A stretch of 49,910 nt of DNA from an uncultured bacterium (GCA_963834265.1 CAWIAU010000002.1:141929-191838); one strand, 5' to 3'. Shown: positions 39,945 through 49,910, counted from the first letter of the stretch. The notes: generated from the letters alone by a model not told the origin. Translations and numbers: made by a program.

Positions 39945-40012
39945 AAAAAGAGACGGGTTTAATCGTCTCTATAGGTTTCAGCGTGGTGCCGGATTGTAAG
40001 CGTATTTCTAAC
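39945..40012. repeat. Cassette junction site (terminator + TGGTGC...)
   Basis: AAAAAGAGACGG-gtttaa-TCGTCTCT-like hairpin, TGGTGC at 39984, GTATTTCTAAC at offset 18. Confidence 0.5.
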
Positions 40013-40096
40013 TTTAAATAATAACGAGATTGACACTTACAAATTGGGGAATCTGGTGGAACAATTCAATTTATCCAGTCAATTACTGGAATAGTT

Positions 40097-40873
40097 TTAG
40101 TTTTTGTAAAAGTTATCTAAAACTGGCGCTATAACATCAGCTTTTACGTCGTGAGTTTGCCCATCTAATGAATTAAGTTCTGCGTTCGGCAAGGATACTG
40201 CTAGGTCTTTTGCTGTTTTAGCCATAAAGCTAGAACTATTGGCGCCATAGATAACCAGTGTATCTGTATTAATACTCTGGATATTTAATGTTAGGTACTG
40301 TTCCATAAGTTCAATCGTGTCGTAAGAAAGAGTATGCGCCATACCTGTTAAGCCTTTCCACATTGGCAGACGTTCCATTGCGGCTATTTGCTTATCTGAA
40401 ACACCAACTGTTTTTATAAATAGCGCTACTGCATCTCCGCGTTTGTCTTCCGAAATTAAACCTGCAAGCTTTTTCCTATATGCAATGGATCCCTCTTGCG
40501 CTGATGAATCTGAATTATAAGGTAACTCATACAATGCTAACTTCTTTACTTTTTCGCTCAGTTTTTGAGCGGCCATCAAGGATAGTATGCAGCCTGAAGA
40601 ATGACCATACAGATATGCACTACCACCCAACTCGTCAATTAGTACTTCAATATCATCAACTTCTTTATCGGTGGAGTATGGCAACGTGTCTGTGCTGTCA
40701 CCCTTACCACGACGGTCGTAACAAACAACCGTAAATCTGTTGGATAAAAGTTCACTTATTTTTTTACCTTGACTTCGCCTGTTCAGCGCGCCTAAGACTA
40801 AAATTAAAACAGGCCCTTGGCCTTTTTTGTCATAAGCAATGGTTGTACCATCTTTTGAAATTACTTTAGGCAT
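40097..40873 (-). CDS. Alpha/beta hydrolase
   Basis: SKDGTTIAY, YDRRGKGDS, GHSSG nucleophile, LDGQTH. Confidence 0.92.
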   Translation of the reverse strand: MPKVISKDGTTIAYDKKGQGPVLILVLGALNRRSQGKKISELLSNRFTVVCYDRRGKGDSTDTLPYSTDKEVDDIEVLIDELGGSAYLYGHSSGCILSLMAAQKLSEKVKKLALYELPYNSDSSAQEGSIAYRKKLAGLISEDKRGDAVALFIKTVGVSDKQIAAMERLPMWKGLTGMAHTLSYDTIELMEQYLTLNIQSINTDTLVIYGANSSSFMAKTAKDLAVSLPNAELNSLDGQTHDVKADVIAPVLDNFYKN

Positions 40874-40952
40874 GACAGCATTGTAACAATAAATTAATAT
40901 AATGGCCTTTATATCGATAGTTACCCCTTATAACTTCGTTGCAAGTCTGACT

Positions 40953-41114
40953 TTATTCCGACAATACTTTATCTATATTTCGTAGAGTTTGTTCTGGTCC
41001 GCGTTTAGAGCGTTCGATCATTTCACCACCTGCACGCCAGCCAAACTCAGTAATAATAACTTTTGTTTTGTCATTGCATAAATCTTGAAACTCTACTCGC
41101 TGTTTTTTATTCAT
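40953..41114 (-). pseudogene. SRPBCC/Aha1-like C-terminal remnant (53 aa, not in ORF track)
   Basis: MNKKQRVEFQDLCNDKTKVIITEFGWRAGGEMIERSKRGPEQTLRNIDKVLSE resembles the final strands and helix of SRPBCC domains. Confidence 0.55.
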
Positions 41115-41284
41115 TGGTGTTTCTCTTTTGCCATATTGCTATCATAACAGTTAGTGACTTAATCTATTTGAGCCAGGTTAAAACCCCGCTACTCACGTGC
41201 ATATAACACTGTGAAAGTTATTAATAGTCTGCCTTTTGTGTCTCGTCTCACATGCCCAAGGATTAGAGACGTTAAAACCCAGAA

Positions 41285-41330
41285 TTAACAGATAAAAAAG
41301 TGCCTTTTCGGGCTCAAAGTTGCGAATGGT
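41285..41330. repeat. 46-bp imperfect direct repeat of the tRNA-Gly ACCA end plus terminator (partner 41766-41811)
   Basis: TTAACAGATAAAAA-N11-GGGCTCAAAGTTGC-N-AATGGT in both copies; followed by GAAAGT at 41345. Confidence 0.85.
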
Positions 41331-41412
41331 ATGCTGTTAACATTGAAAGTGCAGCGATGCTCATTAGGAGGGCCACAAAAAATTACTTTAAATCTATTTA
41401 CTATTATTGCTG

Positions 41413-41718
41413 TTATTCAGCAAACTGCAGCTTGTGTTCGTTTTTAACCGCTTTTTGCTGGTGAGCCCTGGCTCCAACTGGCTCGGAAAATCTAGTATTG
41501 AGCCCGTCTAGAATGTGCTTGTCATTACCCTTTAGCAATGTACCGTCATCGAGCACGACGACTGGTATCTTGTTTTGTCCGCTAACCTGGATTAGCTCAT
41601 CTCGCTCTTTTGGTACAGCTGAAACTGGAATGGCTAAGAATTGTAGGCCAAGTTCCGTCATGCGCTGTCTGATCTTATGTGAGTGAGGACACCACTCCGC
41701 CTGGTAAACTTTTATCAT
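41413..41718 (-). CDS. Monothiol glutaredoxin / GST-N-like protein
   Basis: VYQAEWCPHSHKIRQRMTELG, SGQNKIPVVV..DG; track start 41757. Confidence 0.85.
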   Translation of the reverse strand: MIKVYQAEWCPHSHKIRQRMTELGLQFLAIPVSAVPKERDELIQVSGQNKIPVVVLDDGTLLKGNDKHILDGLNTRFSEPVGARAHQQKAVKNEHKLQFAE

Positions 41719-41807
41719 CGTTGCTTTCAGGTTTATTTTACTTATTTGATTATACACCCTCCAAGTTAACAGATAAAAAGAGCGCTATTAGGGCTCAAAG
41801 TTGCTAA

Positions 41808-41884
41808 TGGTGCGGGTGAAGAGACTCTAACTCTCGACCTCTTCCTTGGCAAGGAAGCGCTCTAAACAACTGAGCTACACCCGC
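41808..41884 (-). tRNA. tRNA-Gly(GCC)
   Basis: GCGGGTG...CTTCC-TTGCCAA-GGAAG...GAGAG-TTAGAGT-CTCTT...CGCACCA. Confidence 0.93.
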
Positions 41885-41971
41885 ATGTATGAAACTTTAC
41901 CGTAAACGATCTGCCGAAACTTTGTGAGCGCCTCCTTGTCCTGGCAAGTAGGGTTTAGACCCATATTATTC

Positions 41972-42150
41972 TGGTGGCTCCTCCCAGACAGCGGACTTCG
42001 TCCTTTTCCACTTAATCTTTCTCGAAGCAAGCTTCTGCGAGAGATTTCGCTTCACCGAACTGATGGTTCACTGCGTTCACGCATCCAGTTCAAGCTTGGA
42101 ACGACCGCAATAATCCATTGCAGCCCACTCAAAAGGTGGGCAACACTGGA
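41972..42150. mobile_element. tRNA-Phe 3'-associated palindromic mini-element
   Basis: 18-bp exact copy of the tRNA 3' end (41972-41989 = 42151-42168), several hairpins, inverted T-arm TCCAGTTCAAGCTTGGA at 42084-42100. Confidence 0.6.
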
Positions 42151-42226
42151 TGGTGGCTCCTCCCAGACTCGAACTGGGGACACAAGGCTCTTCAAGCCTC
42201 TGCTCTACCAACTGAGCTAAAGAGCC
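42151..42226 (-). tRNA. tRNA-Phe(GAA)
   Basis: GGCTCTT...GAGGC-TTGAAGA-GCCTT...AGTTCGAGTCT...GCCACCA. Confidence 0.96.
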
Positions 42227-42358
42227 ACAATATATAGGTGGCGTAGATTATGCGAATTGTTAATGAGCCTTGTGTCCCGGTGGGACAATTGATTATTTCT
42301 GGGCTGAAGCCCGGCATCTTCAAGCCTCTGCGTTTGGCAACTGAGCTAAAGAGCCACA
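42227..42358. mobile_element. tRNA-Phe 5'-associated palindromic mini-element
   Basis: Degenerate copy of the tRNA 5' half (42317-42355), GGGCTGAAGCCC and TGTCCCGGTGGGACA hairpins, inverted 14-nt tRNA fragment at 42265-42278. Confidence 0.6.
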
Positions 42359-42405
42359 TTAACTCTGTTATTCTAGTGTAATTCAACCTTTTATTCAATA
42401 TCAGA

Positions 42406-43146
42406 TTACTTACGGGTAAGGCCTCGGAGGGCATCTACAAGTTCTACAGGAAACAGCATCATTGTCTTTTGTGATGGCTCGGTGGAAATGCGCTCTATCG
42501 TATTGAGAGTACGCAGATTAATCGCTCCGGGAGTAGAAGACAGAATTTTTGCAGCGTCCGCCAGAGTCTGAGCCGCTAACTTTTCGCCGTCAGAATTTAT
42601 CACATTTGCCCGCTTTTCCCTCTCGGCTTCAGCCTGCTTGGCCATGGCACGTTTCATGTCCTGAGGCAATTCAATATTCTGAATTTTAACATTCTCTACA
42701 TCAATTCCCCATGCTTCTGTTTGTTTATCGACAATCACTTTGATCTGCTGGCTAACCTGATCTCTTTTACCCAGCAGGTCATCCAGCTCGATACTCCCGG
42801 TCACGTCGCGCAGAGCTGCCTGGGCAAACTGGCTGGTGGCATAGATATAATTTGTCGTCTCCAGCACTGCTTTCGCAGAGTCCACAACCCGCAGATACAC
42901 GACCGCGTCTACGCTCGCCGTCACATTATCTTTGGTAATGACTTCTTGTTTGGTGACATCTATCGGTGTCGAGCGAACATCGATCTTTCGCATGACCTGA
43001 ATTACCGGAATTATAATATTGAGACCGGGTTTACGCGTGCCGGTATATTTGCCGAGTGTCAGTATCACTCCGCGTTCGTACTGGTTGACAATTCGTATCC
43101 CCAGTATCAGGATTGTCAGGACTATAATAAAAATGAACCAACCCAT
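42406..43146 (-). CDS. SPFH/band-7 (slipin/stomatin-like) protein
   Basis: YERGV..TLGK, PGL, QEVITKDNV, AQAALR, MAKQAEAEREKRA, LRTLNT. Confidence 0.95.
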   Translation of the reverse strand: MGWFIFIIVLTILILGIRIVNQYERGVILTLGKYTGTRKPGLNIIIPVIQVMRKIDVRSTPIDVTKQEVITKDNVTASVDAVVYLRVVDSAKAVLETTNYIYATSQFAQAALRDVTGSIELDDLLGKRDQVSQQIKVIVDKQTEAWGIDVENVKIQNIELPQDMKRAMAKQAEAEREKRANVINSDGEKLAAQTLADAAKILSSTPGAINLRTLNTIERISTEPSQKTMMLFPVELVDALRGLTRK

Positions 43147-43190
43147 TGCACCTCCTTGTTAGTGCTTTCATGATAGCACGGAGCGCAAAA

Positions 43191-43294
43191 GACGAGGGAC
43201 TCGCCTTATCCCAAATATGCCACTGGCGATCCCGTTCAAGTCCTCTCAGAACGCCATGCAATAAAAAAGACCATACAAGATGGTCATTTATTAT
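43191..43294. mobile_element. tRNA-Val 3'-associated palindromic mini-element (degenerate)
   Basis: GACGAGGGACTCG (12/13 to the tRNA 3' part), TGCCACTGGC hairpin, inverted T-arm GTTCAAGTCCTCTCA, terminator-like GACCAT/ATGGTC. Confidence 0.5.
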
Positions 43295-43371
43295 TGGTGG
43301 GTGATGAGGGACTCGAACCCCCGACCCTCTCGGTGTAAACGAGATGCTCTAGCCAACTGAGCTAATCACCC
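43295..43371 (-). tRNA. tRNA-Val(TAC)
   Basis: GGGTGAT...TCTCG-TTTACAC-CGAGA...GGTTCGAGTCC...CCCACCA. Confidence 0.96.
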
Positions 43372-43547
43372 AGGCTTGTAAATTATATCAGGTGAACGGG
43401 TCGGGGTATTCCCCGCCAACCTCCGGCTGGCCCGAAACTTCATTTTTGAAAACAAGTTTTCAAAAGAAGATTTCCTTGCGAACTGCCACAGGTAGTTCTC
43501 ACCTCTCGGTGTAAACGAGATGCTCTAGCCAACTGAGCTAATCACCC
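43372..43547. mobile_element. tRNA-Val 5'-associated palindromic mini-element
   Basis: 46-nt exact copy of the tRNA 5' half (43502-43547), GAACTGCCACAGGTAGTTC and TTTTGAAAACAAGTTTTCAAAA hairpins, inverted GGGTCGGGG fragment. Confidence 0.65.
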
Positions 43548-43664
43548 GATTAATAACAGATTAGACTATACCAGATATAACTACTTTATTAAACAGACTT
43601 TGTTCAACAAACTCTCTGCTCTATGCGATTTACTAAAGCTAATTTCTAAAAAATGTCAAATCTA

Positions 43665-43738
43665 TGGTGCGGTATATGATCTGAACTTCAATTCTCCTGG
43701 TGTAAACGAGAGACTACCGTCAACCGAGCTAATCACTC
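43665..43738 (-). pseudogene. Chimeric pseudo-tRNA (Val-like 5' half, Leu-like 3' end)
   Basis: GGTGTAAACGAGA...CAACCGAGCTAATCAC matches tRNA-Val; TGGTGCGG plus flank matches the tRNA-Leu(GAG) locus; stems broken. Confidence 0.75.
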
Positions 43739-43800
43739 TGTAACAGGCCGATCGAGAGTTACTCATACACCTACGTTATTTTTATCTGTAGAGATAAAGT

Positions 43801-44904
43801 TTAACTGGCTAGCGCATATAACTCATCGGCAGCTTCCCGTGCTGTTTGGCGCTTAGTAGCATCACTATCTAACAATCGCAGGGTAAACTTCGATAAATCA
43901 GAAGCTATACTGTCTCTATCTCTGGCTACTACTTCAGGTCGGGGTGGAACAGGGTGCCTGAGAAGATTACGTGTATATGTTCCCATCTTGCCCTCGGTCT
44001 TGCTCTCAGTAGGCCAAGGCAATCTTCCTCCTGTGAGTAAGCAGTATATTGTTGCGCCCACCGCAGACATGTCGCTCGAGGGACGTAGCGTAGATACACC
44101 ACCCAGTACTCTCTCGCGGGCCATATAACCAGGTGTGCCTATCGTTGCTCCTGTTTGTGTTATCTCATTAAAAACTGCTAGTTCATTTTCAAAGTGGGCA
44201 CGTAGAAGATCCGGAGCTTCTTCTTCACCAGATACGCCTACTGCACCAAAATCACTTAGATAACCCACGCCATTTATATCAAGAAGACCATTGCCCGGCT
44301 TAATATCCCTGTGAACAAGTCCTTTTTTATGTAACTCATCCAGCGCCAAAAGAATCGGATGGAATGCCCTGGCCAGAGTTTCTACGCGTTCTATTCTGCC
44401 ACCTGCATTATTAACAGCTAGTTTTGCTAAGGTTCCGTGCTGGAAAGGCATAGTAAAATAAGGGAGTTCTCCCGCACGGGTCTGAACTGTACCATGATCA
44501 TGCAAGTCCACTACTCCGGCATGATGTCCCATAGTACGATGTACACTTATCTCCCTGTAGGCGCGGTAAGGCTGCTCGTCCTCAGGGTGGAGCAATTTTA
44601 AAGCAACAAATCTGCCTGTAGAATCTATGGCTCCGTGTACATCAGACTGAGCTGTACTGGCTATTCGCCCCAACACGTCTAAATCAGTAGGTCCATGCTG
44701 GTCATCTGAATCTGCTGTAGTGTGTCCGTTAACCAAATGAAGCCTGGGTCTTGGTTTTTCAGCATCTATGAGACTAGGAATATTTTGCCTGGCAATCTCC
44801 ACTGCACTAATTTCTGGTCCCTGGGCCATTAGCACACTCTCCCCCAGGGCCTCTGTATCAGGGCTAGGAAAATGTGGCACAACATTTGGACTCGTATAGG
44901 CCAT
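43801..44904 (-). CDS. Hanks-type Ser/Thr protein kinase, soluble
   Basis: VALK, RE, HRDIKPGN, DFG, IGTPGYMARE, SDMSAVG; no TM or sensor domain. Confidence 0.9.
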   Translation of the reverse strand: MAYTSPNVVPHFPSPDTEALGESVLMAQGPEISAVEIARQNIPSLIDAEKPRPRLHLVNGHTTADSDDQHGPTDLDVLGRIASTAQSDVHGAIDSTGRFVALKLLHPEDEQPYRAYREISVHRTMGHHAGVVDLHDHGTVQTRAGELPYFTMPFQHGTLAKLAVNNAGGRIERVETLARAFHPILLALDELHKKGLVHRDIKPGNGLLDINGVGYLSDFGAVGVSGEEEAPDLLRAHFENELAVFNEITQTGATIGTPGYMARERVLGGVSTLRPSSDMSAVGATIYCLLTGGRLPWPTESKTEGKMGTYTRNLLRHPVPPRPEVVARDRDSIASDLSKFTLRLLDSDATKRQTAREAADELYALAS

Positions 44905-45034
44905 GTTTATTTTTTTACTTAATCTAACTCCTGCATTCGACTATACGACCGAAGATATTACATATCAAGAATATATACACTTTTCACCAAGTAATAAGCA
45001 TAAGAGTCTGTAATAATTCTCACAAATGATATAT

Positions 45035-45085
45035 TATGCGATTTTTTAAAGCTAATTTTCGAATATCGTCAAATCTATGGTGCGG
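45035..45085. repeat. 51-bp imperfect direct repeat (partner 43622-43672) bounding the kinase
   Basis: TATGCGATTT..TAAAGCTAATTT......GTCAAATCTATGGTGCGG, 43/51 identical by manual alignment. Confidence 0.85.
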
Positions 45086-45163
45086 ATGAGAGGACTTGAA
45101 CCTCCACAGGATTGCTCCCACTGGCCCCTCAAGCCAGCGCGTCTACCATTCCGCCACATCCGC
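45078..45163 (-). tRNA. tRNA-Leu(GAG)
   Basis: GCGGATG...CTGGC-TTGAGGG-GCCAG, long variable arm, GGTTCAAGTCC, CCA. Confidence 0.96.
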
Positions 45164-45197
45164 ATGAGTCATCTGAATAACAGATTAAAGAATACAG

Positions 45198-45241
45198 TAA
45201 ATACGCTTATCCCTCAAGCTAAATACGCTTATCCCTCAAGC
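45198..45241. repeat. Perfect 22-bp tandem duplication
   Basis: TAAATACGCTTATCCCTCAAGC x2. Confidence 0.9.
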
Positions 45242-45257
45242 TCGCGGATAATTAAGA

Positions 45258-46895
45258 TTACGTGCGGGGCATGTGGTCATAGAGATGATCCATCGAATAC
45301 TCGTGACGCAGCAAAGGCTTGATATCCTCCAGTGTTACATCCATCTTTACGCCGGGATTCAGGATTCCGTGAGGATCAAAGATCTTCTTGAGCTTCTGAA
45401 ACAGCGCATAGGCTTCATCACCGTAGAGCTTCCGGAGATAAGGTGCTCTCAATCGCCCGTCGCCGTGTTCGCCACTGGTACTCCCGCCGAGTTCAATCAC
45501 CATATTGTAATATTCATCAATCAGGCGAAAAACTTTCTGCCGGTCACCGATTTGATTCAAATCCAGAAACGGCTGCATGTGCAGGTTGGCATTACCGGCG
45601 TGCCCCCATATTGCGACTTTGAGCTTGTGCCTGTCAAACAATGCGTACACCTTAGTCAGATAGTCATCAAACCGCTCAATGGGCACAATACCGTCCTCGA
45701 TAATCGGCAGAGCTTTGGCTCGTCCTTCGCTATATGCAATCACAGCGGCAGCACTATGACGTATCTTCCATAGCTCATCCTTACTTGACTCTTCGGTTTC
45801 CTGTCGATACTTAATATTTAGCTTTTGCAAGAGTCTCGTCGTCTTTTTGGCGCTGTGGTTCCGTTGACGCGACGACTGATCATCAAATTCGATTAGCATG
45901 ACCAGTTTAGGGAATGGCGGTGACAAAATGCCCTTAAGTTGATTCGGATTGTGTTCCTGCAAAAAGTTCAGTAGATTTTCATCTACAATTTCCATTGCAC
46001 TGGGAGGATGTTTCATGTTGCGGAGTTCCAGAATTATCGATTCTGTCTGCTTGATATCGTTGCAGTATGCAGCAATCAGTGTTGTAGCCGGATCATGAGG
46101 CTCGGTGGCTACTGTAATTTCCGTAATAATACCCAACGTTCCCTGCGACCCGACCAATAACGGAGTCAGGTCGAAGCTATCGCCTTTGTCTTTGACGCTA
46201 CCGATATCGTAACCAGCAGAGTTTTTGGTAACATCCAGTTTCAGATTTTTGATTATATCCTGATTTTCTTCGATAAGAGCGTCCAGAGACCTATAAATTT
46301 CACCTTCAAACGTAGAAAGACCCATTTTTTTGCTGACTTCACGCTTGTTAAGACGTTTTGTTTCGATAACTTCGCCATTAGCCAGCACTACTCTGAGGCC
46401 CTCAGTATAAGTCCGGGTATTGCCGTACTTTACAGTCTTTTCGCCGCTGGCATTATTTGCCACCGCGCCCCCGACAGTGGAATATTCCTGTGAGGCAGGG
46501 AAAGGCGGCAGAAAACGGCCATGGGTATGGAGTGCCTGTTGTAACTTCGCGTAATTCAGACCCGGTTCCAGTGTGACCGAACCCGATTTAGCGTCCAGTT
46601 CCAAAATGCGGTTCATGTGTGCCGGAAATACCAGAATCACACCCTTACCAATAGCTGCACCGCTTTGATCCGTGCCGGAACCCCGTGCAGTAATCGGCAT
46701 GACTCTGCCACGCTCTGCTAACTGCCACGTGAAGCGGGCGGTTTTGCGTACATCATTTTCGTTACGGGGATAGACAATAATAACAGGCATGACCTCAAAA
46801 ATGCTGCTATCGGTTGAGAAATACCTGCAGGCATCGGAACTTGTCATGACCTCGCCAATCAAATGTTCCTGCAGATAATGTGCTACTTTATTCAT
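45258..46895 (-). CDS. FAD-binding oxidoreductase (GlcD/D-lactate dehydrogenase-like, FAD_binding_4 + FAD-oxidase_C)
   Basis: ARGSGTDQSG, STVGGAVANNASG, GSQGTLGIITE, GHAGNANLH, SGEHGDG, FDPHGILNPG. Confidence 0.9.
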   Translation of the reverse strand: MNKVAHYLQEHLIGEVMTSSDACRYFSTDSSIFEVMPVIIVYPRNENDVRKTARFTWQLAERGRVMPITARGSGTDQSGAAIGKGVILVFPAHMNRILELDAKSGSVTLEPGLNYAKLQQALHTHGRFLPPFPASQEYSTVGGAVANNASGEKTVKYGNTRTYTEGLRVVLANGEVIETKRLNKREVSKKMGLSTFEGEIYRSLDALIEENQDIIKNLKLDVTKNSAGYDIGSVKDKGDSFDLTPLLVGSQGTLGIITEITVATEPHDPATTLIAAYCNDIKQTESIILELRNMKHPPSAMEIVDENLLNFLQEHNPNQLKGILSPPFPKLVMLIEFDDQSSRQRNHSAKKTTRLLQKLNIKYRQETEESSKDELWKIRHSAAAVIAYSEGRAKALPIIEDGIVPIERFDDYLTKVYALFDRHKLKVAIWGHAGNANLHMQPFLDLNQIGDRQKVFRLIDEYYNMVIELGGSTSGEHGDGRLRAPYLRKLYGDEAYALFQKLKKIFDPHGILNPGVKMDVTLEDIKPLLRHEYSMDHLYDHMPRT

Positions 46896-47005
46896 TTGTG
46901 CGTACAACCCTCATCGTAACCAAGCGTTAGTAGATTCAACAGATATAATAGCACAAAATGATCTCTGCTACAGATATAGCAGTCGTCATATTTTTATTTA
47001 TCCGG

Positions 47006-47033
47006 GCTGTCCCGACTTTTTTGTCGGGACAGC
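47006..47033. terminator. Strong hairpin / probable terminator
   Basis: GCTGTCCCGAC-tttttt-GTCGGGACAGC, perfect 11-bp stem downstream of the 47047 gene. Confidence 0.6.
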
Positions 47034-47046
47034 AGCTCATTACGTA

Positions 47047-47574
47047 CTAACCCGCAGACCCCGGCGTGTTCCCGGGTGTAAGCGCTACCATTTGGCGGAT
47101 GCTCTCTACCACCAGCGCAGTATCAAGAGGAACTTCGGCTACATATCTCTCGATAGCGCCTACAGTTTGATCTACGGTAACCAGAACTGTCGGGGGCACT
47201 GTATCCCGTACACCAGCCTGATCAGCTGTTTCAACGGACAGTAGCGCAGCCAGTCCCTGTGCCATCCGGTAGTGCTTGCCTGAAGCAGTACGATACATCA
47301 GACGTTCATTTGACTCTTTACATCTTTCCCTGGGTGGATTTAAAACCCGAATTACTGATTTTGCTACACCACTAAGGTGATAGACGGTACGTTCACCGCG
47401 TTTAAGCGCAATTCCTGCAGAATAGTTTTTATTATTCTTTCTCATTGCGATCAGTTCTTCCTGAGTAGGTTCTGAACCGGATGCTGAATAGTTAGCTGCA
47501 GCACCGTATAGTATGTCATTTTCATATTGCAGCCTTCTTCTTTCAGAATTGGGCATATTATCTAAATTATTCAT
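47047..47574 (-). CDS. Hypothetical protein
   Basis: About 175-aa ORF (track start 47586); no recognised motif. Confidence 0.55.
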   Translation of the reverse strand: MNNLDNMPNSERRRLQYENDILYGAAANYSASGSEPTQEELIAMRKNNKNYSAGIALKRGERTVYHLSGVAKSVIRVLNPPRERCKESNERLMYRTASGKHYRMAQGLAALLSVETADQAGVRDTVPPTVLVTVDQTVGAIERYVAEVPLDTALVVESIRQMVALTPGNTPGSAG

Positions 47575-47782
47575 TTCAATTCTCACTTTCTAAAACATTC
47601 AAAAAATTATTATTTAACACAAATAAATAGCCCGGGAGTGATTCCCGGGCGATTAACGGACAAAATTTGAACGTGTTAAATCAGCCTGGAAATACTACCG
47701 GGCTGCATAAATGAAATGAGTGATTCGCATTATTATATTTCACAACTTTATTATTTTATAATAGCTCATTAAACTTGTCAAT

Positions 47783-47949
47783 TGGTGCGGATGAGAGGAC
47801 TTGCCCCACAATGCATTTTATTGAGCTGAAGCTCTCAAAAAATGGCCAGGCGGTGAAAACGTAACTTGCCACAGGCAACTTACGCCTATCGGTTCAAGTC
47901 TGTCAATCATGACAGAAAAATCGATAACCAGATGCTATCCGTTTTTCTG
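47783..47949. mobile_element. tRNA-Leu(CAG) 3'-associated palindromic mini-element
   Basis: 21-bp exact copy of the tRNA 3' end (47783-47803 = 47950-47970), GAGCTGAAGCTC and CGTAACTTGCCACAGGCAACTTACG hairpins, inverted GGTTCAAGTC at 47891-47900. Confidence 0.65.
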
Positions 47950-48036
47950 TGGTGCGGATGAGAGGACTTGAACCTCCACGAGCTTGCGCCCACTACGTCC
48001 TGAACGTAGCGCGTCTACCAATTCCGCCACATCCGC
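47950..48036 (-). tRNA. tRNA-Leu(CAG)
   Basis: GCGGATG...CTACG-TTCAGGA-CGTAG, long variable arm, GGTTCAAGTCC, CCA. Confidence 0.96.
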
Positions 48037-48078
48037 ATATCTGAACTATTATATATTATACTTTGCTATGTCTAAGGC

Positions 48079-49887
48079 TTACAAACGATCCCTGAGATCC
48101 GGGGTATACGTAGCTTTCGATTCTCGTATCGTCCAGTTTTCTACGTGAGCATATCTATCTGTTGCTATAACTACTGAACGTACATCGAATCCGTGCAGCG
48201 GAGTGCGTACAACATACAGAAATCGTGGCTGGTAAAGTGCCAGTGCCGGAGCGTCCGTCCGCCATACTTCCAGGAACGGCTGGTATTTAACTTTTCGTAC
48301 TGCCCTGTCTGATCGGGTTCTGCCCGCTTCCAGAGCCTTATCGGCTACCGGCGAGTTATACTCACTAAAATTCAATCTGGTTGCAGAACGAATATCGGCC
48401 TGGGAACTATGCCAGTAAGCAAATACGTCGGGATCAGGTCCTAATGATATAGCATCAATCAGGGCATCATAGCTATGAGTCGAAACAGTACTTTTCAGAT
48501 CCTGTTCGGATTGTTGCACTATTTGTACATCGACACCAACTGCTCGCCATTGTTTCTGCAAAGCATCTGTTACACTGGCGTATTCGCTCTTGGCCTGAGC
48601 ATACAGACGGAAAGTTAACGGCGCCCCGTCTTTGCTCCGGATACCGTTATTGGGGTCTTTTATCCAACCGGCCTGATCTAACAGTTGATTTGCCTTGTTT
48701 CGGTCACCCGTAATCTGAACGAGCATAGCATCATAACTGGTATGGGAATGCAGTACGGGTCCGTTGGTTGCAATGAGAGAATACGGCACCTGGGCAAATG
48801 TTTCTTTTTTATCAGCAGCAAGCACCAGTGCCTGCCGGACATTCGGATCTTTCAGAACCCCCTGCGTCGTTTTGAAAAACACCATGACCTGTGCCATAAC
48901 GGGAATACCAAACTGTATTGTTGTGTCATCTGCAGCAAACTCTTCCGGTATAGTCGTAAGTCCTGTCATTGCGTTAATCTGCTTAGCGGCATAGCTATCT
49001 GTCATCTGTTTTTCGTTGCGAAAAGTCTTGACTACAAATCTATCGAGCCGGGGAGCACCGTTATGATAGCGATTAAAAGGCGCCAGAGCAATTTGTTCCT
49101 GCCGATTTGCCGCGTTATCACCACTAACATCAACTGCCTCAAAACGAAATGGCCCTGCGCCTACCGCACCGATGGTATTGAAGTCCGATGACCGAAGTTG
49201 ACTGGCTGGTACCGGTCCGAGGATATGCTCCGGAATAATTCCTGTCGTCAGAGAATGGGAGAAAGCACTGAGCTGACTGGGCAGTTTGAAGATTATAGTA
49301 CGATCATCTTTGGCTGAAATCTCAATGCCCTGCCAGCTGGCCTGCAGATATGATTTCGCATCCGGATTCTGAATAGTTTTATAGGTGAATACTACGTCCT
49401 TGGCGGTTAAAGGCTGGCCGTCCTGCCATACAAGTTCCGGACGAAGCGTTACCGTATAAATTTTTTCGGTTTCGTCTACTGACCATTTTTCAGCCAGATC
49501 ACCGACCAGCTGATGATTATCATCGTATTTTAAAAGTGATGCAAAAATCAACCTGGAAACAGAACCGTCGACAGAACCAACCGCATAAAGCGGATTAGAA
49601 TTTGTATAGGAACCGAGTATACCCTCACTGTATATTCCCCCCGATGCTGCTACCGATACCTGAAAGTGCTTCCGAAGCGCTGAAGTCTGCATTGCTACAG
49701 CCACTATCAGTAAAATCATCAGTCCCAGCCATCCGAGCACGAAACGTCGCACAGCCATAAGACGGACAAGTCGACGAATGAAATGTCGATCCAGCTGCTC
49801 ATCGGCCGTAGCACCGATATCTTCGACCTGTTTTCTGCGTTTTCTAACCGATCGCCGGAGCTGTAAACGTGTAGAGCGCTGTATCAT
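48079..49887 (-). CDS. Peptide ABC transporter substrate-binding protein (family 5, OppA/DppA-like) with N-terminal TM anchor
   Basis: LVGDLAEKW, WQDGQPLTAKDVVFT, VGAGPF, VRQAL, A.QLLDQAGW. Confidence 0.92.
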   Translation of the reverse strand: MIQRSTRLQLRRSVRKRRKQVEDIGATADEQLDRHFIRRLVRLMAVRRFVLGWLGLMILLIVAVAMQTSALRKHFQVSVAASGGIYSEGILGSYTNSNPLYAVGSVDGSVSRLIFASLLKYDDNHQLVGDLAEKWSVDETEKIYTVTLRPELVWQDGQPLTAKDVVFTYKTIQNPDAKSYLQASWQGIEISAKDDRTIIFKLPSQLSAFSHSLTTGIIPEHILGPVPASQLRSSDFNTIGAVGAGPFRFEAVDVSGDNAANRQEQIALAPFNRYHNGAPRLDRFVVKTFRNEKQMTDSYAAKQINAMTGLTTIPEEFAADDTTIQFGIPVMAQVMVFFKTTQGVLKDPNVRQALVLAADKKETFAQVPYSLIATNGPVLHSHTSYDAMLVQITGDRNKANQLLDQAGWIKDPNNGIRSKDGAPLTFRLYAQAKSEYASVTDALQKQWRAVGVDVQIVQQSEQDLKSTVSTHSYDALIDAISLGPDPDVFAYWHSSQADIRSATRLNFSEYNSPVADKALEAGRTRSDRAVRKVKYQPFLEVWRTDAPALALYQPRFLYVVRTPLHGFDVRSVVIATDRYAHVENWTIRESKATYTPDLRDRL

Positions 49888-49910
49888 CCGGATTGCTTAC
49901 GCAAGGATAC

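Follow-up and report, generated by a model that had tools for sequence, protein, structure and literature searches.

Several described systems come close to the tRNA-linked units considered here, that is, five non-coding units of 110-180 bp beside transfer RNA (tRNA) genes in a 49,910-nt stretch of bacterial DNA (the window, C2:141929-191838 of a three-contig, 1.08-Mb Saccharibacteria genome, 95.8% complete, hereafter G000), together with the three-hairpin module that one of them carries in full. Miniature inverted-repeat transposable elements (MITEs) and repetitive extragenic palindromic (REP) sequences, the latter including REPINs and associated with RAYT proteins of the HUH Y1 type, are short, non-coding, hairpin-forming and multi-copy, vary in number and bear a short motif 5' of the hairpin. 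Integron attC sites and the ends of IS200/IS605 elements are recombination sites that act as single-stranded DNA, with conservation of the fold and not of the sequence. Finally, fold-back or template-switch synthesis generates inverted duplications, such as those of quasipalindrome mutagenesis and of the duplication-triplication/inverted-duplication (DUP-TRP/INV-DUP) pattern, as sporadic events.

Closest to the present locus are MITEs and REPs by form, the tRNA introns of Thermoproteales by behaviour, and the attL/attR fragments left by integration at tRNA genes by result. The module resembles MITEs and REPs in being short, hairpin-forming and multi-copy, with varying copy number and a conserved motif 5' of its hairpin, but it has no target-site duplication, its inverted termini agree at 4 of 6 positions, and it is linked to tRNA genes and oriented with them; in addition, RAYT-like genes were found in 8 of 30 related genomes and not in this one, and their flanking palindromes, where read, are unrelated to the module. 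With attC sites and IS200/IS605 ends it shares a fold that covaries on one strand, orientation-specific insertion and the lack of target duplication, whereas no IntI or TnpA was found in recombinase and Y1_Tnp profile searches, no R-box-like consensus is present and the target is tRNA-derived. As in DUP-TRP/INV-DUP events, the tRNA 3' end is triplicated in direct-inverted-direct order, with turn-rounds at hairpins, microhomology and small losses; unlike fold-back events, the units have a layout that is stereotyped across tRNAs and genomes and that includes a conserved module. As in the tRNA integration sites described in PMC9897764, a direct partial copy of one tRNA end lies by an intact gene and mostly stops at the terminus, and tRNA genes are the hot spots. 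However, the islands given there span 9-120 kb, compared with intervals of 110-180 bp here, and our units lack an integrase, occur on both the 5' and the 3' side, contain an inverted copy in register with the terminator and carry a covarying module in the T-loop. The Thermoproteales introns, for which PMC4090602 reports large-scale transposition and an unknown mechanism of spread, are likewise related short inserts in many tRNAs, located in the D-arm, at 25/26, in the anticodon arm, in the variable region and in the T-loop. According to the same paper, they lie in functional archaeal genes and are cut by EndA at a bulge-helix-bulge (PMC4090602), whereas the module is bacterial, neither EndA nor RtcB was found in this genome, and every module read lies in a partial copy beside an intact gene. 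For the MITEs and REPs, the tRNA introns and the attL/attR fragments, defining features were looked for that are absent here.

Our preferred reading, to which we assign a probability of about 45%, is that the five units, of which one is intact and the others are variants or decayed, belong to a class of small tRNA-linked insertions specific to Saccharibacteria and built around a non-autonomous mobile module that host functions would move.

A conserved three-hairpin module

The module is a non-coding element of 87-90 nt with three hairpins, and the unit upstream of tRNA-Val(TAC) (Val-5') bears a complete copy. Eight copies of this type (family A) are present in the genome; 17 of their 30 predicted pairs are compensatory, and a covariance model, R1, was built from them. 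The termini of the module are near-invariant, reading (A/G)GGTGA(G/A) at the 5' end and GTGAC(C) at the 3' end in 72 copies. A first-pass annotation, made by a model from the sequence of the window, had described the units as a family of palindromic mini-elements and proposed a covariance-model scan of CPR and other genomes and a test of covariation. In 30 genomes of the family, compared by covariance model and profile searches, R1 detected the module in 24, with 0-35 copies per genome. In 97 distinct sequences from other metagenome-assembled genomes (MAGs), 95.3% of cells were paired (69.9% in shuffles), and 33 of 35 pairs varied on both sides, with slid controls at 48% or below; this alignment was fitted to R1, which somewhat favours structure. 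G-T/T-G wobble cells far outnumbered A-C/C-A cells (170 vs 32 of 3280 cells). The fold is therefore selected on the tRNA-sense strand, where the folded species would be RNA or single-stranded sense DNA.

A wider sample was obtained by a motif scan of GTDB contigs, which gave at least 120 matches. R1 was run on 81 loci (80 of these and one viral locus) and returned 99 matches, nearly all of them, among the matches listed, in Saccharibacteria MAGs. The single motif match in viral contigs (L070) was not confirmed by R1, and the same was true of contigs labelled as other phyla (L071, L089, L098, L102, L143 and L146). One 2.4-kb contig labelled Calothrix (L093), perhaps mis-binned, had an R1 match of 101 bits. 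The module is found almost only in Saccharibacteria, fits no described family or enzyme and is a clean lineage marker. The first-pass annotation could name no described family for the units, and this held: an Rfam cmscan of positions 40000-49910, at E up to 1, returned tRNA matches and one spurious long non-coding RNA match but no family for the units, and a literature search, with subscription journals and supplements outside its scope, found no published description of the module.

tRNA linkage and insertion sites

Modules lie beside tRNA genes and point the same way. At 30 loci in relatives, 34 of 36 modules were beside an intact tRNA, all 34 co-oriented with it; among 88 matches in the wider sample, 68 had the orientation of their tRNA, 46 lying downstream of it and 22 upstream, and 2 were opposite. 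The strict linkage put forward for testing was found in most cases (34/36 and 70/88) but not in all, as 18 of the 88 had no tRNA within 300 nt, 11 of these being near the end of the locus. GC skew is weak (minimum of contig C1 at ~140 kb, maximum at ~460 kb), and by it tRNA-Ile would be head-on and tRNA-Pro(GGG) co-directional, both with co-oriented modules, a weak hint that module orientation follows the tRNA and not the replication fork.

Flank mapping showed that the module is flanked on both sides by tRNA sequence, at GG(T). Most modules occupy the T-loop at positions 54/55, and others the D-loop, the neighbourhood of positions 25/26, the anticodon stem-loop or the variable region; other modules are entered as well, at the GGT at the base of their hairpin 3. 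Junctions share 0-3 nt of GG(T), with 0-6 target bases lost. With the module taken out, 7 of the 149 distinct full copies gave an ARAGORN tRNA call. When read, all seven calls stop shortly after the T-stem and adjoin an intact gene of the same anticodon. Thus, every module read sits in a spare partial copy, unlike a tRNA intron of the archaeal bulge-helix-bulge or the bacterial group I type, which interrupts a complete, functional gene. At three tRNA-Phe loci from three genomes (L064, L094 and L131), the module is inverted and lies in the variable region of the spare copy, after GG on its own strand; L131 also has a repeat of tRNA-Phe positions 50-76 plus terminator (63 nt, 100% identical).

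The units around the modules follow a regular plan. In 37 of 52 3' units, TGG occurs 31-38 nt after CCA, and in 32 of those 37 the intervening stretch, which is the terminator, forms a dyad with an identity of 69% or more. Over the 20 nt that follow, similarity to the reverse-complemented tRNA 3' end exceeds chance; the offset was chosen for best score, so these figures are somewhat generous. Inverted copies with 12 or more aligned nt were found in 36 of 49 3' units. The inverted piece is the continuation of the terminator's dyad. A 3' unit accordingly runs from the tRNA through a symmetric terminator of ~34 nt, an inverted 3' part that begins with TGG in dyad register, positions ~45-54 and the module to positions 58-CCA, ~180 nt in total, which matches the unit size first annotated. 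An upstream T-loop unit consists of a copy of positions 1-54, the module, the T-stem 3' strand, an inverted T-loop, a TATAAT box and the tRNA. Copies extend to CCA in 32 of 49 3' units and begin at position 1 in 27 of 33 5' units. Past the tRNA itself, 8 of 32 3' units and 3 of 27 5' units still have 13 or more of 25 flank letters in common, and some units have a fully identical terminator or promoter.

In G000 itself, partial same-sense copies (BLAST, at least 14 nt, at most 2.5 kb from a tRNA gene) were found at 13 of the 42 tRNA genes, and by-eye reading of all flanks added further degenerate copies at Pro(GGG), Pro(TGG) and Ala(TGC). These copies begin at tRNA position 1 or finish at CCA, with related hairpins between copy and gene.

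The five units of the window

ARAGORN places five tRNA genes, all on the minus strand, between 41808 and 48036. The units lie beside three of them, with the following features (coordinates on the plus strand of the window, strand of the feature indicated).

41972..41989, minus: Phe-3' direct copy of tRNA-Phe positions 59-76, with the CCA end, 18/18 to 42151-42168
41990..42062, minus: module C, a variant without hairpin 1 as read by eye, in the T-loop of the spare Phe 3' copy; T-stem 5' piece, GGTGAAG, long hairpin and short GAA-loop hairpin; orthologue in G011
42085..42141, minus: degenerate inverted tRNA-Phe T-arm (42085-42099) and hairpin right after tRNA-Phe (42123-42141); layout alike in G011
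42151..42226, minus: intact tRNA-Phe(GAA), ARAGORN and Rfam (65.3 bits), 100% identical in G018 and G020
42260..42312, plus: Phe-5' interior; inverted tRNA-Phe positions 37-50 (42265-42278) running into hairpin 42273-42287; hairpin 42301-42312
42317..42357, minus: Phe-5' direct copy of tRNA-Phe positions 1-38, 39 nt at 89.7%; promoter-like site 42398-42370 upstream
43191..43285, minus: Val-3' unit; terminator 43263-43285, inverted tRNA-Leu-type 3' part with TGG start 43234-43256, hairpin 1 tip 43219-43227, decayed direct copy of tRNA-Val positions 58-69 at 43191-43202
43295..43371, minus: intact tRNA-Val(TAC), ARAGORN and Rfam; flanks empty in G018 and G020
43415..43504, minus: full three-hairpin module of family A, joined at GG(T) to the copy of tRNA-Val positions 1-46; R1 98.8 bits
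43502..43547, minus: Val-5' direct copy of tRNA-Val positions 1-46, 46/46; promoter-like site 43592-43565 upstream
43622..43738, minus: chimeric pseudo-tRNA, with a degenerate Val 5' part (43693-43738, repeats 76%) and a degenerate Leu T-arm and 3' end (43665-43697)
43622-43672, minus: copy of the downstream flank of tRNA-Leu(GAG) after the chimeric pseudo-tRNA, 51 nt, 84%
47783..47803, minus: Leu(CAG)-3' direct copy, 21/21 to the 3'-terminal 21 nt of the tRNA
47804..47949, minus: Leu(CAG)-3' interior, a divergent module; hairpin 1 at 47861-47883, hairpin 47823-47834, 3' end abutting the copy at the T-loop, inverted T-arm piece 47891-47904, symmetric terminator-like hairpin 47912-47950
47950..48036, minus: intact tRNA-Leu(CAG), ARAGORN and Rfam

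The five units and their direct copies of one end of the adjacent tRNA were recovered by a repeat finder where they had been annotated. Spacings between copies are 179 for Phe-3', 176 for Val-5' (43502-43547 against 43326-43371) and 167 for Leu(CAG)-3' (against 47950-47970). The Phe-5' copy has a 24-nt core of 96% identity at a spacing of 129, its full 39-nt extent coming from BLAST, and the Val-3' copy is weak, at 11 of 12 positions. Val-5' has a third copy 191 nt further on, at 43693-43738 (76% identity), and its direct copy gives a sub-threshold Rfam tRNA match (43489-43547, 28.2 bits against a cut-off of 29). Mechanical open reading frames (ORFs) of 98 and 80 aa overlap tRNA-Phe and are putative only.

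The claim that each unit also holds an inverted copy of a neighbouring segment of its tRNA stood for Phe-5', where the match is exact over 14 of 14 nt at 42265-42278 (19 nt at 89%), but less well elsewhere. The Val-3' piece (43234-43248) matches the T-arm of both tRNA-Leu genes at 15 of 15 positions and not tRNA-Val, and by eye the pieces of Phe-3' (42085-42099), Leu-3' (47891-47904) and Val-5' (8 nt in 43399-43417) are short or degenerate. The CC-ACN-GG caps proved to be the tip of hairpin 1 of one module family, reading GCC-NGT-GGC on the tRNA-sense strand; they are oriented alike in Val-3', Val-5' and Leu-3', and the Phe-5' hairpin lies on the opposite strand. Genome-wide, the CC-ACN-GG motif occurs 77 times, 10 of them within 300 nt of a tRNA compared with ~1.8 expected (2.3% of the genome), and 9 of these 10 are co-oriented with the tRNA. 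As for the CAAG-capped long stems, they correspond to hairpin 2, that of the module in Val-5' and that of the module variant in Phe-3'. The CGAACTG after the stem of Phe-3' comes from the tRNA-Phe T-arm, and in this part the likeness is coincidental. The two GCTGAAGC hairpins lie at 42301-42312 (Phe-5') and 47823-47834 (Leu(CAG)-3').

The single design ascribed to the five units holds as a recurrent, non-coding, tRNA-linked family but not as five equal elements; R1 detects a full module in one unit of five (Val-5', 43415-43504, E 1e-20). The next-best match in the window is hairpin 1 alone (47858-47887, E 0.23). The Phe-3' unit has a module variant that lacks hairpin 1 and retains the GGTGA start, the long hairpin and the short GAA-loop hairpin in the T-loop of the spare copy; in our reading, made by eye and not detected by R1, this variant resembles family A. 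Its orthologue in G011 has an identical junction end and covarying stems. Matches to its core motif occur in this genome beside Trp, Pro(TGG), Met and Ala/Ile tRNAs, and those other than the Phe orthologues are weak. The Leu(CAG)-3' unit retains hairpin 1 and the 3' end, with a diverged middle; Val-3' retains the hairpin 1 tip, between the inverted Leu-type piece and the decayed copy; and in Phe-5' the inverted tRNA piece runs into a hairpin of the other strand. The element first annotated should hence be redefined: the mobile part would be not the whole unit but the 87-90 nt module within a spare partial tRNA copy.

Gain, loss and movement

Comparison of occupied and empty loci, which had been suggested as a check, was informative. 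Two relatives, G018 and G020, share the gene order and have an identical tRNA-Phe (100%), and in both, tRNA-Phe and tRNA-Val are without copies or modules; the Phe-to-Gly spacer is 38 nt in G018 and 266 nt here. At the other extreme, G010 has modules at at least 17 tRNA genes, with 35 copies. One subfamily of G010 (93-97% identity) is nested in resident modules of Leu(TAG), Lys(CTT) and Lys(TTT) that are otherwise unlike one another, each time at the GGT at the base of hairpin 3, and this site is likewise occupied in another MAG. Empty sites in relatives and nested young copies together argue for mobility, and the nested insertions are the best sign that the module alone would be the moving unit. 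The proposal of mobilization in trans is therefore plausible, given the 0-35 copies per genome, the empty sites of G018 and G020 and the nested copies, although the link to REP, RAYT and HUH that came with it was not supported.

Two other loci suggest that whole tRNA genes were imported. At tRNA-Pro(GGG), the acceptor stem common to the outer halves resembles that of relatives' alleles, and the inner intact gene differs, with compensation. At tRNA-Ile, the anticodon loop of an outer copy contains an intact gene whose leader and trailer are complementary (inverted).

Several further observations concern the same region or genome. The start of contig C1 (G000 C1:1-1241) holds two tRNA-Met 3' parts, each with a T-loop module, 1.1 kb apart with small ORFs between; the tRNA-Met gene itself is missing from this contig. 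Within the window, a 1.4-kb cassette (43622-45085) carries one Ser/Thr protein kinase gene (43801-44904, Pkinase E 6e-25) and is bounded by 51-nt direct repeats of 84% identity, which comprise the last 8 nt of tRNA-Leu(GAG) and its downstream flank; its far end is a chimeric pseudo-tRNA of Val 5' and Leu 3' parts (43665-43738). Just upstream of tRNA-Leu(GAG) there is a perfect 22-nt tandem duplication (45198-45241). The sequence at 41927-41949, upstream of tRNA-Gly(GCC), resembles the tRNA-Gly anticodon arm in direct orientation, and G020 (L057) has a partial tRNA-Gly 5' copy between Phe and Gly. The best promoter-like site of the region (47781-47753 on the minus strand, 11/12) follows right after the Leu(CAG) 3' copy and points towards the next gene.

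Search for a mobilizing enzyme

Co-occurrence with HUH/RAYT transposases or with integrases had been put forward as a test, and neither link was supported. Across the 30 genomes, the content of reverse transcriptase (RT), serine recombinase and extra tyrosine integrases is unrelated to module number. A retroelement (group II intron, retron or SINE-like) would call for an RT in the genomes that have modules, but RVT_1 is found in 5 of 30 genomes, with no match here or in G010, which has 35 modules. Resolvase does not track modules either: G009 has 16 modules and no match, and G020 has no modules and 6 matches. The Xer-like recombinase occurs once per genome, module-free genomes included. Y1_Tnp is missing here but occurs in 8 of the 30 genomes. 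Modules average 12.0 per genome (96/8) where Y1 is present and 3.0 (65/22) where it is not, but these genomes are interrelated, and the association is a lead only. Among 14 Y1 matches listed, 8 loci were examined and 7 intact ORFs read, all flanked by palindromes of their own that are unlike the module. These RAYT-like genes of ~205 aa, with a palindrome on both sides as in REP/RAYT systems, are located at L062, L063 and L065-L069 (in G010, G009, G001, G013 and G004). HUH/RAYT proteins were thus not supported as the mobilizer: the gene is absent here, the flanking palindromes, where read, are unrelated and the genomes are interrelated.

The present genome had no match to the TnpB domain, the IS110 transposase or Cas1 (PF01867, 0 matches), the integrase that a casposon would need, nor to EndA (PF01974) or RtcB (PF01139), both also with 0 matches. 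It has no autonomous transposase relative among Y1_Tnp, the TnpB domain and IS110, the DDE families not having been searched. It does have a broken tyrosine integrase and four serine-recombinase loci (C1:484828, C1:571239, C2:102688 and C3:30281), which lie 0.9-2.2 kb from the tRNA genes Glu(CTC), Asn, Gln(CTG) and Lys(TTT). No RT, HUH, TnpB, Cas1, IS110, RtcB or EndA accounts for the spread of the module.

Origin of the units

Under the preferred reading, a module of 87-90 nt that starts with GGTGA(G/A) and ends with GTGAC(C) would land at GG(T) in tRNA-derived sequence. The spare copies would come from local duplication of a tRNA end together with the terminator on the 3' side or the promoter on the 5' side, giving a direct-inverted-direct concertina as by fold-back or template-switch synthesis; duplication might precede insertion or follow it. 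Modules would then persist only in spare partial copies beside the intact gene, because insertion into a single-copy tRNA gene would be lethal. Our confidence stays below one half because the enzyme is missing and the junctions, with their shared GG(T) and small losses, resemble the products of template switching or microhomology joining rather than those of a transposase. A number of observations weigh against this reading. The junctions have no target-site duplication, the inverted termini GGTGAG/GTGACC are imperfect (4/6), and the frequent loss of 1-6 target bases at the 3' junction is no known transposase's mark. Profile searches, covering 30 genomes for some families and this genome alone for several others, gave no candidate enzyme. 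The copies of this genome have diverged (74-78% mean column identity) and show no sign of activity here; in G010, fully identical copies occur solely as tandem repeats. A tree of 38 modules lacks resolution, with no clustering by tRNA or genome except, loosely, for Met-3' and Ser(GGA)-5'. The module was not seen in the inverted arm, where a purely sequence-directed DNA insertion would be expected to place it as well. Moreover, several copies are 100% identical to the tRNA but have unrelated flanks, for example Val-5' (46/46), so that gene conversion or a gene-restoring integration is needed rather than plain duplication followed by decay, and the different outer and inner acceptor stems of Pro(GGG) point to import of a whole new tRNA gene.

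These last points fit the alternative that we take most seriously, although it is unlikely: a whole unit of ~180 nt (module, short tRNA piece, promoter or terminator, and the tRNA portion that rebuilds the gene), or sometimes a whole tRNA cassette, would recombine with the resident tRNA through their common tRNA sequence and leave the displaced end as the direct copy, by host homologous recombination after DNA uptake or by a site-specific enzyme. Such restoration would fit copies that mostly stop at mature ends (CCA in 32/49 3' units, position 1 in 27/33 5' units), flank identity below 13/25 in 24 of 32 3' units and 24 of 27 5' units, the Val-5' copy with its unrelated flanks, the relatives' acceptor stem in the outer halves of Pro(GGG) around an inner gene that differs with compensation, the intact tRNA-Ile gene nested in the anticodon loop of the outer copy, tandem arrays of promoter, tRNA positions 1-54 and module, and the TATAAT box that 5'-side units have of their own. 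However, it does not account for the way in which a unit would pick up the fitting part of a tRNA species new to it, the available homology is just 17-54 nt, the intact gene at Phe-5' seems by eye to retain its native promoter with the copy segment inserted further upstream, and module-in-module insertions require mobility of the module alone. In a related and somewhat more doubtful proposal, an enzyme-free 87-nt element, as RNA or single-stranded sense DNA, would enter exposed loops of tRNA genes, and the same event or an incoming cassette would supply a new, intact gene next to the damaged one. Overwritten repeatedly, the tRNA genes would leave wrecks that accumulate as direct and inverted copies. 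This would amount to the tRNA intron transposition of archaea taking place in a bacterium, or to a selfish replacement of tRNA genes. If instead there were no mobility, the module would be a conserved functional RNA of tRNA loci (for processing, transcription control or protein binding), the copies would be by-products of replication template-switching at tRNA and terminator hairpins, and genome differences would reflect loss. We regard this as improbable. The strong covariation with sense-strand wobble pairs, the near-strict co-orientation, the regular architecture, the promoter-like sites upstream of 5' copies and the recurrence of Leu(TAG) 3', Met 3' and Ser(GGA) 5' combinations across genera would agree with it, but a single genus (g5) spans 0 to 35 copies per genome, five genomes of 95-98% completeness are module-free, modules occupy at least four tRNA sublocations and nest in each other, 3' units are located behind the terminator, and many copies are truncated or decayed, including 4 of 5 in this window.

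The odds are slightly poorer for scars of att sites, in which islands or prophages would have integrated at tRNAs with duplication of their ends (attL/attR) and then been nearly deleted, leaving hairpins as island ends. Partial tRNA copies are the classic mark of integration (PMC9897764), and direct repeats of the 3' part (18, 21 and 12 nt), the four serine-recombinase loci near tRNA genes, the broken tyrosine integrase and the cassettes of ~1 kb and 1.4 kb between repeats, at the tRNA-Met 3'-end copy of the C1 start and at tRNA-Leu(GAG), would fit this picture. Nevertheless, the intervals are 110-180 bp with no integrase remnant, the recombinase matches lie elsewhere in the genome and do not track module number, and copies occur on the 5' side as well. 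No distant copies of tRNA ends were found 2.5-40 kb away, where matches of 14-16 nt are at chance level, the exceptions in this 40-kb search being units already listed (the 21-nt Leu(CAG)-3' copy and the 15-nt inverted Leu-type piece of Val-3'). The module also lies within the T-loop, with tRNA sequence on both sides, and has a covarying fold that integrase arm sites do not show. Quite improbable, too, is an intron-like element that would enter exposed tRNA loops as RNA and be copied back, or a relic of spliced tRNA introns. Its sense-strand fold, its co-orientation and copies that stop at mature tRNA termini would be compatible with this, and by our mapping the sublocations match the archaeal non-canonical intron sites 20/21, 25/26, 45/46, 53/54 and 56/57 given in PMC4090602. 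Yet, when read, not one of the 149 distinct full copies turned out to be surrounded by a complete tRNA, all seven ARAGORN calls being truncated, this genome is without EndA, RtcB and RT, RT is found in just 5 of 30 genomes, and the three tRNA-Phe copies are inverted relative to the tRNA. An assembly artefact is barely credible: the genome is a MAG of three contigs and repeats are prone to misassembly, but the same architecture recurs at more than 100 loci in independent assemblies. A look-up of public sequencing runs for positions 41700-48100 listed none.

Implications

Although Saccharibacteria genomes are small (~1 Mb) and leave little DNA to spare, modules and tRNA wrecks occur at a third of the tRNA genes here and at up to 35 sites in a relative. 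The partial copies present an annotation hazard, as they score close to real tRNAs (28.2 bits against 29) and seven spliced artefacts were accepted by ARAGORN. A conserved, covarying fold that spreads without a recognizable enzyme would imply a new kind of movement of small DNA, a new host-dependent route of tRNA recombination or an RNA function of tRNA loci. It may also provide a bacterial case for how short inserts spread among tRNA genes, a question that is open for archaeal introns (PMC4090602).

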